DNA of 57,022 nucleotides from UHGV virus genome UHGV-1526745, one strand, 5' to 3'. The position numbers and the translations under genes are program-made. The first letter of the stretch is position 1; each line of letters begins with the position of its first letter. Shown in pieces: positions 3,753 through 24,969 of the stretch. The notes beneath the pieces were generated by a model. That model was not told the origin of the DNA and made no database searches. It worked only from the letters and a program-made list of their open reading frames with translations. Source of the stretch: a virus.

Positions 3753-3884
3753 TTACGGACGGGACTGTGCAATACGCGCCTGCAGCCAGGCTTCCACTTC
3801 ACTTTTCAGCCAGCGGGAGCTGCGCCCCATTTTGATGGGGGCAGGAAAGCCCCCATCTTTGATGAGTTTGTAAAACCACTTATC
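3753..3884 (-). pseudogene. alpA: alpA 3' fragment (AlpA-family HTH regulator, C-terminal half)
   Basis: Minus-strand translation ...KDKWFYKLIKDGGFPAPIKMGRSSRWLKSEVEAWLQARIAQSRP* with in-frame stop just upstream and no start codon; complements the N-terminal fragment at 56942..57022. Confidence 0.65.
3876..3884. repeat. attachment-site core copy CCACTTATC (left junction)
   Basis: Same 9-mer with one mismatch (CCGCTTATC) at 56939..56947; both sit exactly where alpA-like coding sequence breaks. Confidence 0.5.
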
Positions 3885-3957
3885 TTTTGAATGGCTGGCT
3901 TAACGAAAAAATATTTTGCATTCAACATCTTATGTTTTGTTTTGTTTTTAATTTATC

Positions 3958-3980
3958 AATTTGGTCGCAATTTGGTACAC
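3958..3980. promoter_or_regulatory. direct repeats AATTTGGT(C/A), putative integrase arm-type sites (left arm)
   Basis: CAATTTGGTCGCAATTTGGTACAC; same motif repeated three times at 56771..56813 next to int. Confidence 0.4.
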
Positions 3981-4009
3981 AAAAAAGAAACGAGGCGTTA
4001 GCCTCGTTT
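3978..4009 (-). terminator. rho-independent terminator after tail-fibre operon
   Basis: Hairpin AAACGAGGC-GTTA-GCCTCGTTT followed on minus strand by CTTTTTTG. Confidence 0.5.
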
Positions 4010-4055
4010 CGCGCGGCGATGTTTTCAACATCACCATGCTATCACTGCCGCATCA

Positions 4056-4322
4056 TTAAGCCCATGCGCGGACGCCTGGATCTGGAACAATGAAAGGCTC
4101 AAGCTGAGAAATATCAACATCGTCACCAGTTATACGCACGTTGACGTAATAACCTTTTTTCCCAATAAGTACAGGTGTCTCGCTTTCTGGATCGTCGAAT
4201 ACAAGGACAAAACCGATATCATCAATAAACACTGTTGACCAATTGGCATCCAGCCAGCCGCTATTAATCACAATGTCGTTGTATTGCTGTTTGTCAGTAA
4301 ATTGCAAGCTAACGTCTTTCAT
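4056..4322 (-). CDS. hypothetical protein downstream of tail fibre gene (possible fibre assembly factor)
   Basis: Track ORF 4056..4340; internal ATG at 4322 preceded by AAGGTGG; position only. Confidence 0.4.
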   Translation of the reverse strand: MKDVSLQFTDKQQYNDIVINSGWLDANWSTVFIDDIGFVLVFDDPESETPVLIGKKGYYVNVRITGDDVDISQLEPFIVPDPGVRAWA

Positions 4323-23640: not shown

Positions 23641-24969
23641 TTAGAAATAAGTGTTAAAGTCTGGTACTTCGCCTTTTTTACCTTCGCTTGCTGCGTTGGT
23701 AGCCATCGGCGCTGCTTTGCCCAGGGATTTAAACATTGCATCGAGCGCATCACCGCTTAATGCGTTAGCAACAATTTCGCCGTGTACTTTCGCAACTGCG
23801 GCGCGTTTTTCTGCTTCTTCTTTATTTGCGTTTGCTGCAATTTCTTCTTTAATTGCTTTCTGGTTGGTCTGCAATTCTTCTTGGTTGGTCTGTAATTCTT
23901 CAACGCTTGCCTGTAATGGTTTTAATGCCTCTGCTACTGCATTAGCGATATTGGCGGATAAGCCTTCGTTAATTTCTTTTACCAGTTCGGCGCGTTCTTC
24001 TTTGGTCAAAGGCATGGGATCGTCCTCCGATTTATTGGCCTTAATTTTTTCATTCAGGGAGAAAAGATTAGAAAGGTGTTCAGCGAACTGAGCAAACCAT
24101 GATTTACTTTCCTCGTTGGTTGCAAGCTCGCCATTATTGAGAATAATTTTATCAGCCTGTTTTTCGTATGCGCAAACTTGAGCACTTTCAGTATTAGTGG
24201 CGATCGTCACTTCTTTATCAGTGAAGTCCACCACGTACACATAATCGGCATCAGGGAATAATTCCCGCGCCGCGTCGGTTAATTGTTTCTCAAGCGTGCG
24301 GTAGCTGTTTTCTTTCATTGCCACCGCCATTAACGGTTTCGCCTGGTCAGTATTAACCATCAACCCTACACCCTGTTCAGGTGAGGCTGCTGGCGGCTCA
24401 TGCAGCAAAATAGCGTCATGGTCGATCGACATAATTTTAACAACGCTGTCAGCGCCCTGGGCTTTCATCTCTTCAGTAGCTGGCATACGTTGACGATATA
24501 CAGCGACGGACGACCAGATAGGATCTTTGCTTTCACCTTTTTCCAGTGCTTCCAGTCTGCTTAATAATTCGCGGCCTTGTTCTGAATGGCTGGCGGTTTC
24601 CACATCCACCCATTTTTCCACATAAACACGGTTGCCGCGTAATTCAACGTTTCTGTTCCACGCCCCACAAAAACCAGTGTTTAATCCTTCCGGGCTAAAT
24701 GCGGAAACAAATTTACCGTCAACGGTAGGATGACCCAGCGGGGCGAGTGTCCCCTCCAGTGACTGGTAATTAGCGATAATTTCAGCTTCAGGGTAATATT
24801 CCCGATTCATAACGATGTTAAATGGTAACGTGTAGGACGGGACGACAATATGTTCCCGCCCGTTATACGTTTCCCGGCGGATGGTATTAGCGGTTAATTT
24901 GGTATTAACCTGAATCAGTTCTTTACTCACGGTTTTACTCCCAATCTTCGCCATATTTAGCGTGCGCAA
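23641..24969 (-). CDS. scaffolding / prohead-maturation protein (DUF2213-like)
   Basis: 442-aa ORF between head-morphogenesis and capsid genes; helical Glu/Ala/Lys-rich C-terminal half with EELQTNQ tandem repeat. Confidence 0.45.
   Translation of the reverse strand: MRTLNMAKIGSKTVSKELIQVNTKLTANTIRRETYNGREHIVVPSYTLPFNIVMNREYYPEAEIIANYQSLEGTLAPLGHPTVDGKFVSAFSPEGLNTGFCGAWNRNVELRGNRVYVEKWVDVETASHSEQGRELLSRLEALEKGESKDPIWSSVAVYRQRMPATEEMKAQGADSVVKIMSIDHDAILLHEPPAASPEQGVGLMVNTDQAKPLMAVAMKENSYRTLEKQLTDAARELFPDADYVYVVDFTDKEVTIATNTESAQVCAYEKQADKIILNNGELATNEESKSWFAQFAEHLSNLFSLNEKIKANKSEDDPMPLTKEERAELVKEINEGLSANIANAVAEALKPLQASVEELQTNQEELQTNQKAIKEEIAANANKEEAEKRAAVAKVHGEIVANALSGDALDAMFKSLGKAAPMATNAASEGKKGEVPDFNTYF

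Follow-up and report, generated by a model that had tools for sequence, protein, structure and literature searches.

Each end of the prophage examined here carries a 24-bp module, and the two modules are very probably arm-type binding sites of the prophage's own integrase (Int), placed on both sides of the attachment site. The window, meaning the whole stretch of DNA that was analysed, comprises 57,022 nucleotides of the virus genome UHGV-1526745, and comparison with the empty host site puts the prophage at approximately 3885–56938. The arm-type reading is well supported by features of different kinds, namely position, domain content, phylogenetic footprinting, covariation between protein and DNA, and the precedent of phage P4. 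Judging from its sequence, the prophage is a member of the mEpimmI group with a type II integrase; at the DNA level, its int region is 96% identical to that of MagusPhagus and 88–89% identical to those of mEp010, mEp013, and mEp044, with mEp021 being distant. The integrases of mEpimmI phages have been sorted into types Ia/Ib (ydaM), II (abgT), III (mppA), and IV (PMC11893012). The same work mapped the att cores and reported a conserved N-terminal DNA-binding domain of Int, with the rest of the protein variable and the att sites different, but arm sites are not described there and the terms "arm-type" and "attP" are absent from it (PMC11893012). A full-text literature search with the motif sequence returned only unrelated primer matches.

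The original prediction held that a repeated AATTTGGT(A/C) motif occurs near both prophage ends in five copies, and all five were found at the positions given: AATTTGGTC at 3958–3966 and 56791–56799, AATTTGGTA at 3969–3977 and 56771–56779, and tATTTGGTACAC at 56802–56813. While the repeated motif is real, the functional unit appears to be not a 9-mer but a sequence of ~12 bp, TGTGTACCAAAT when read in the sense of int, that forms a tandem pair on each arm. A repeat search of the window (family D16) returned a 24-nt direct repeat, 3958–3981 versus 56791–56814, with 22 of 24 bases (92%) identical; the left-hand 24-mer quoted in the original prediction begins at 3957, one base ahead of the 3958 assigned to it. 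Every 24-nt module is composed of two tandem units, ATTTGGTC.. and then ATTTGGTACACA, set 11 bp apart. In int sense, this becomes TGTGTACCAAAT followed by (A/T)G(T/C)GACCAAAT(T), with the ACCAAAT cores of the two units separated by 11 bp. The P′ pair accordingly reads TGTGTACCAAAT (3981..3970) and then TGCGACCAAATT (3969..3958), and the P pair reads TGTGTACCAAAT (56814..56803) and then AGTGACCAAATT (56802..56791), with the second unit of each pair (GTGACCAAAT) being degenerate relative to the first. The P pair extends up to the int ATG, and the T-run of the tail-operon terminator is directly followed by the P′ pair (Table 1).

Table 1. Elements of the two att arms, the neighbouring genes, and the tandem units of distant relatives (positions are those of the window)
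Feature	Position	Strand	Remarks
P′-arm tandem pair, putative arm-type Int sites	3958..3981	-	74–97 bp from core in attL; kept in all type II, Ia, and Ib mEpimmI attP
P-arm tandem pair, putative arm-type Int sites	56791..56814	-	Abuts int ATG; 125–148 bp from core in attR; conserved block amid diverged P arms
Third AATTTGGTA copy	56771..56779	-	int codons 4–7, GAT ACC AAA TTA = D T K L
attL core	3876..3884		CCACTTATC, common to uninterrupted host site; crossover in CTTATC
attR core	56939..56947		CCGCTTATC, phage-type copy, G at polymorphic position
int, 399-aa tyrosine integrase	55591..56790	-	N-terminal arm DNA-binding, central core-binding, and catalytic domains
72-aa candidate excisionase/RDF	55415..55633	+	Convergent with int, overlaps int 3′ end by 43 bp
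Two clusters of three 10-bp tandem units, AYGATRKRAM	56837–56866 and 56900–56929		Between P sites and core; 63 bp apart
TAAAAT, -10-like hexamer	56816..56821	-	1 nt upstream of first P unit; possible int promoter element
Intrinsic terminator of tail-fibre operon	3987..4010	-	T-run abuts P′ pair; kept in all mEpimmI attP
Unit upstream of int: Atlantibacter, Citrobacter, Sodalis, Salmonella phage Oslo, Aeromonas			GTGTACCAAAT, 12-bp period
Unit upstream of int: Xenorhabdus, Morganella, Acinetobacter			GTGTACATA(A/T)
Unit upstream of int: Mixta, Pantoea			GAGTAC(A/C)A(A/T)

It is conceivable that such repeats have no function at all, being either relics of an old duplication or sequences kept by descent along with the terminator and the int start that adjoin them, and the statistics bear on this in both directions. 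Taken alone over the whole window, the 9-mer pattern is not significant, with five matches against 1.87 expected and 4 of 100 shuffles reaching five, as would suit functionless repeats; the 23-nt composite ATTTGGTMNCNATTTGGTACACA, on the other hand, is matched twice, and its chance expectation is zero (0.00 over 100 shuffles). In the whole 57 kb, exact copies of the 12-mer ATTTGGTACACA are confined to 3970 and 56803. Moreover, the window contains 13 ATTTGGT sequences (both strands), of which five, each of them on the + strand, fall inside the two att arms (314 bp in total), giving a Poisson P of ~1.5e-8 for arms that were defined after the fact. A 9-mer copy at 24896, remote from the att arms and not extended by ACACA, was taken as a chance match.

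The third AATTTGGTA copy also lends something to the idea of functionless repeats, in that it can be explained by codons. The corresponding stretch reads ACG AAA TTA in mEp021 and L053 (type Ib), ACC AGG TTA in type Ia relatives, and ACC AAA CTA in L044 (type II), and DTKL-like residues are conserved across the family whatever the motif. Since the copy is altered at synonymous positions in relatives while DTKL is kept, it looks like a by-product of coding, and it is probably a coding coincidence or, at most, an auxiliary site.

The integrase itself has an arm DNA-binding domain. Its Pfam domains are Arm-DNA-bind_3 (1.4e-19), Phage_int_M, and Phage_integrase, and its residues 2–87 match the solved arm-type binding domains 3JTZ and 3JU0, from the HPI and HAI7 integrases; this domain is of the P4/HPI type. 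Domains of the 3JTZ/3JU0 type belong to the DUF4102/IntSXT subgroup (PMC8138268). Relative to the mEp021 protein, Int is 72% identical over residues 1–60, 36% over residues 91–200, and 53% in the catalytic part. The int ATG lies at 56790..56788 on the minus strand, and RefSeq homologues start at the same ATG; some database records place the int start at upstream in-frame ATGs (411–415 aa). Insertions of 1–2 nt in mEp044, L045, and L086 break this upstream frame, thereby supporting the MLTDTK start. The right-hand copies had been described as overlapping the int start, and indeed the 56791 copy abuts the ATG and the 56771 copy lies within codons 4–7.

Comparison with the host fixes the position of the core. 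When both ends of the window were compared with complete E. coli genomes by megablast, the left flank matched up to 3884 and the right flank from 56939, and the two flanks are adjacent, with a 9-bp overlap, in the uninterrupted site of strains such as E. coli MCJCHV-1. In an alignment, the sole sequence common to the empty site (L001) and both junctions is CC(A/G)CTTATC, and the crossover falls within CTTATC, i.e., at 3879–3884 and 56942–56947. The predicted location of the left repeat, ~75 bp inside the left core, is therefore correct, as the core ends at 3884. Because both junctions lie outside the repeats, the latter are inside the phage arms and are not the core; moreover, the core region GTTATCCGCTTATCTTTTGAATGG differs in sequence from the repeats ATTTGGTACACA. 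As the longest direct repeat common to both prophage ends, the 24-mers could have been mistaken for the att core itself, that is, for the duplicated prophage boundaries. This reading has virtually no probability and is refuted by the empty-site alignment, which puts the junctions (3884 and 56939) 74 and 125 bp outside the repeats, and by the attP of free phages, whose genomes hold both copies, 231 bp apart. Furthermore, relatives integrated in abgT keep the repeat-to-core sequence at both ends.

The insertion splits a 68-codon gene for an AlpA-like HTH regulator, the parts of which lie at 3753–3884 (-) and 56948–57022 (-) of the window and which belongs to an island where a yfjI-family gene is present as well. 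Close relatives, with int regions that are 92–96% identical, are integrated in the 3′ end of abgT instead, and the prophage, though of the same group as mEp021, mEp010, mEp013, and mEp044, resides in the AlpA-like HTH gene and not in abgT. The attB of the K-12 abgT gene has TATCC(A/G)CTTATCTTTT in common with attP. As attP shares 16 bp with the site at abgT and only CC(A/G)CTTATC with the site used here, the HTH gene looks like a secondary attachment site. The junction of int with the HTH gene was seen in none of 5,426 complete E. coli genomes, where the best query coverage stops at 56947. There are no tRNA genes in the window, so the att site is not a tRNA-targeting one. In MagusPhagus (L006, 2044–2072), the crossover is flanked by a perfect inverted repeat, GTTATCC...15 nt...GGATAAC, the halves of which are probably core-type sites. 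Variant forms of both halves surround the crossover in mEp010 and mEp044, and in the present prophage (56934–56947 joined to 3885–3900) the P′-side half reads GGCTGGC.

An intact attP with both modules is present in free relatives, namely in MagusPhagus, in the mEp phages, and in IMG/VR contigs. That of the free phage MagusPhagus runs without interruption from the P arm through the core to the P′ arm, and in it two 100% identical 22-mers (TTTGGTCACTATTTGGTACACA) lie 231 bp apart, one on each side of the core; the prophage reconstructs to the same attP. When the motif was sought in the att regions of related prophages with the same integrase, it was present in all of them. Footprinting was carried out on an alignment of 15 attP sequences representing integrase types II, Ia, and Ib, whose cores differ (CAAAAGATAAG versus CCAGACAG) and most of whose arm sequence on both sides is unalignable. 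The blocks that are nevertheless kept on both arms include the TGTGTACCAAA..GTGACCAAA modules. Also partly kept are the terminator, an ATTC-containing stretch beside the core, and, upstream of the P pair, a stretch rich in T/A. Between the core and the P′ pair, types I and II partly share a conserved T-rich tract, GTTTTGTTTTGTTTTTAATTTATC (3925–3957), which may serve as a bend or host-factor site; by eye, no convincing match to the IHF consensus was found in the arms.

Conservation of this kind would also be expected of functionless repeats to the extent that each block is contiguous with a conserved element, namely the terminator (P′ block) or the int start (P block). Indeed, the P′ pair adjoins the conserved terminator and an A-rich tract, and part of its conservation among mEpimmI phages could reflect the shared ancestry of the late-operon end. 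The same layout recurs amid unrelated flanks, however, in Salmonella phage Oslo, L096, L092, and P4, and tandem units are still present at Int identities as low as 30%, their motif having drifted without being lost. With the zero chance expectation of the composite added to this, an absence of function is very improbable, and the arm-type reading is retained in what follows.

In two contigs from the IMG/VR metagenome 3300045988 (L042 and L046), the terminator and P′ pair are fused to the int start, ~30 nt upstream of it, and the ~230 bp of attP between the direct repeats, including the core and the 10-bp repeats, are missing. Either recombination between the repeats or an assembly collapse could have produced this arrangement.

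Scans of genome and viral contigs extended the comparison to relatives whose Int proteins are 29–52% identical, with different cores and otherwise unalignable arms, and these still possess tandem GTGTAC-type repeats upstream of int. All the distant relatives found have two to three tandem units, located 10–70 bp upstream of int, and the lineages concerned are Atlantibacter, Citrobacter, Sodalis, Salmonella phage Oslo, Aeromonas, Xenorhabdus, Morganella, Mixta, and Acinetobacter. A second set on the same strand, 235–301 bp upstream of the ATG, was found in eight of the nine intact attP tested (types II, Ia, and Ib; Oslo; L065; L096; L092; and P4). The ninth, L085, has no distal copy at that threshold, and a more degenerate P′ set can be read in it. 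Five integrated loci, in which host DNA lies beyond the core, served as controls; in Atlantibacter and Sodalis there was no distal copy, and the other three gave one-mismatch matches that all fall outside -235..-301. Shuffle tests for the distal copy at each locus (10-mer with ≤2 mismatches, 7-mer with ≤1) are individually weak, and it is the consistent position across lineages that is informative.

The motif and the arm domain change together. Thus, the shared GTGTAC half accompanies a conserved hairpin, GLSxRISPKGxIxFQYRYRFNGK, and the 3′ half of the motif varies with a segment of the arm domain (residues 11–20): ACCAAA goes with GKPYDGPxE, and ACATA goes with K/E-R-E/D in the same segment, both in Xenorhabdus/Morganella and in Acinetobacter. 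Within the ACCAAA group, the arm domain is 66–73% identical to that of the present Int, and the whole protein is 43–52% identical where a full-length match exists. By sequence comparison, then, the sites are kept among elements that share the arm-binding domain and are altered when the domain is altered.

This covariation also bears on the possibility that the repeats are bound not by Int but by a different phage protein, for example the RDF candidate of 72 aa or a protein involved in immunity or regulation. The sites do abut the int start and a terminator, where regulators act, and the RDF candidate is encoded beside int. Its sequence has an Xis/AlpA-like pattern and matches PHROG 4745 ("DNA binding protein") weakly, with no Pfam match. 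The arrangement of its ORF beside int is kept in mEp021, and a homologue occurs at the same place in Salmonella phage Oslo. The protein is 45% identical to mEp021_02, an annotated HTH protein, and hence between types I and II, whereas the repeats do not vary across the same divide, and it is the arm domain that is the best-conserved part of Int and with a segment of which the motif covaries. A better fit for an RDF is offered by the two clusters of 10-bp units, which are found in all type II attP and in type II only; type I arms have CCGT(A/T)CA-type repeats instead. In lambda, RDF sites cluster on one arm beside the core, as opposed to the present repeats, which occupy both arms. The TorI sites of KplE1 likewise lie on one arm, the int-proximal attL arm (PMC2951348). 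Binding by another protein is therefore unlikely, though somewhat less so than an absence of function. The 72-aa protein is a candidate RDF and the 10-bp repeats are its candidate sites, as suggested by sequence pattern and location; a restriction of RDF-type sites to the P arm, which is known for lambda, would then hold here as well.

Arm-type sites are well known from phages lambda and P4, and the layout described above resembles theirs. In general logic, lambda (P1, P2, P′1–P′3) is the same, in that its integrase is heterobivalent and its core is flanked on both sides by arm sites, ~75–150 bp away, but it differs in the family of the arm-binding domain, the consensus, and the number and arrangement of the sites. 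For the lambda arm-type sites, PMC2951348 cites Ross and Landy (1982). P4 is closer, although its attB is a tRNA gene, as compared with the abgT 3′ end or, for this prophage, the HTH gene as a secondary site. P4 Int has the same domain architecture as the present Int (IntSXT/P4 subgroup, DUF4102; PMC8138268), and in the P4 record, 12-bp features annotated as "attP arm sequence repeat" show the same layout. One tandem pair, ATTGGGGGCATA and ATTGGGGGCATC, lies 16–39 bp upstream of the P4 int gene, and the two P4 pairs (3942–3965 and 4151–4174) lie on opposite sides of the core in the same orientation, ~210–230 bp apart, the prophage pairs being likewise placed. Additional P4 copies include one inverted over the int start and one inside int. 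The motif itself differs, being ATTGGGGGCATA in P4 and TGTGTACCAAAT here, and the unit period is 12 bp in P4 and the distant relatives, as opposed to 11 bp in the mEpimmI phages. The P4 recognition sequence TGGGGGCAT is not matched by the present motif, GTACCAAAT, and the arm domains of the two integrases are only ~31% identical; thus, the architecture is common to both but the specificity is not. The position of the repeats relative to the cores fits the arm-type sites that were originally proposed, in that they lie on both sides of the core, outside it, and in the same orientation, and Int possesses an arm domain.

From these observations, we infer binding of Int to one tandem pair on the P arm, beside int, and to one on the P′ arm, across the core. 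The units of each pair, approximately one helical turn apart and all pointing in the same direction, would be contacted by the N-terminal domain of a heterobivalent Int, and its central and catalytic domains would occupy the core sites around CTTATC, thus bridging arm and core. Accessory proteins, among them the candidate RDF at the 10-bp repeats of the P arm, would bend the DNA in between, and the resulting intasome would serve both integration (attP × attB) and excision (attL × attR).

By occupying the P pair, Int may in addition repress its own gene, for which P4 and KplE1 provide described cases. In P4, int is reportedly under the negative control of Int and Vis (Piazzolla et al. 2006, cited in PMC2951348). 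In KplE1 (CPS-53)/HK620, the arm-type sites of IntS and the TorI sites overlap the intS promoter in the int-side arm, and int is repressed by Int as well as by the RDF (PMC2951348). A TAAA motif is common to the arm sites of KplE1 (PMC2951348), as compared with ACCAAAT here, but the P pair occupies an equivalent place, and its location, with a -10-like hexamer on one side and the int ATG on the other, is the reason why Int may repress int. Of 13 family representatives other than P4, 8 (this prophage included) have a TAnnnT sequence at the corresponding position, as does P4, and the placement of TAAAAT would put the P pair at about +1 to +25 of the int transcript. A scan with the sigma-70 consensus called no promoter on the int strand; its two matches, both on the + strand, are not above the shuffled expectation. 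Autoregulation of Int through the P pair is plausible from its position and the -10-like hexamer, with the chances for and against it roughly balanced.

Two further observations concern the expression of int. In type II phages, int has no Shine-Dalgarno sequence, the second arm unit running into the ATG (window 56788–56840), and in type I relatives GGGGG or AGAGG Shine-Dalgarno sequences precede int. In the circular form, the tail-fibre operon, its terminator, attP, and int (3987–4010 through 55591–56790, all -) are co-oriented, so that read-through of the terminator would cross attP into int, a link that integration breaks. It is tempting to suggest, though only tentatively and with the odds rather against it, that the type II P pair has moved to abut the ATG and doubles as an operator and as the entire int 5′ leader, with Int gating the start of its own transcription and translation, and that, separately, the 22–24-bp repeats can recombine and delete the attP core, as the two metagenomic contigs suggest, giving rise to non-integrating phages.

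The arm-site layout is an ordinary att feature of a known type that was previously undescribed for the mEpimmI group, and it changes no concept. It does fill in the attP anatomy of these recently defined and common gut coliphages, for which earlier only the cores and integrase types were available. It also yields a recognition motif that can be tested, made up of GTGTAC and a variable 3′ half, for a broad P4-like integrase subfamily that extends from Escherichia to Acinetobacter. Finally, arm-domain residues 11–20 and the 3′ half of the motif make up a natural protein–DNA covariation pair that could guide work on arm-binding specificity.
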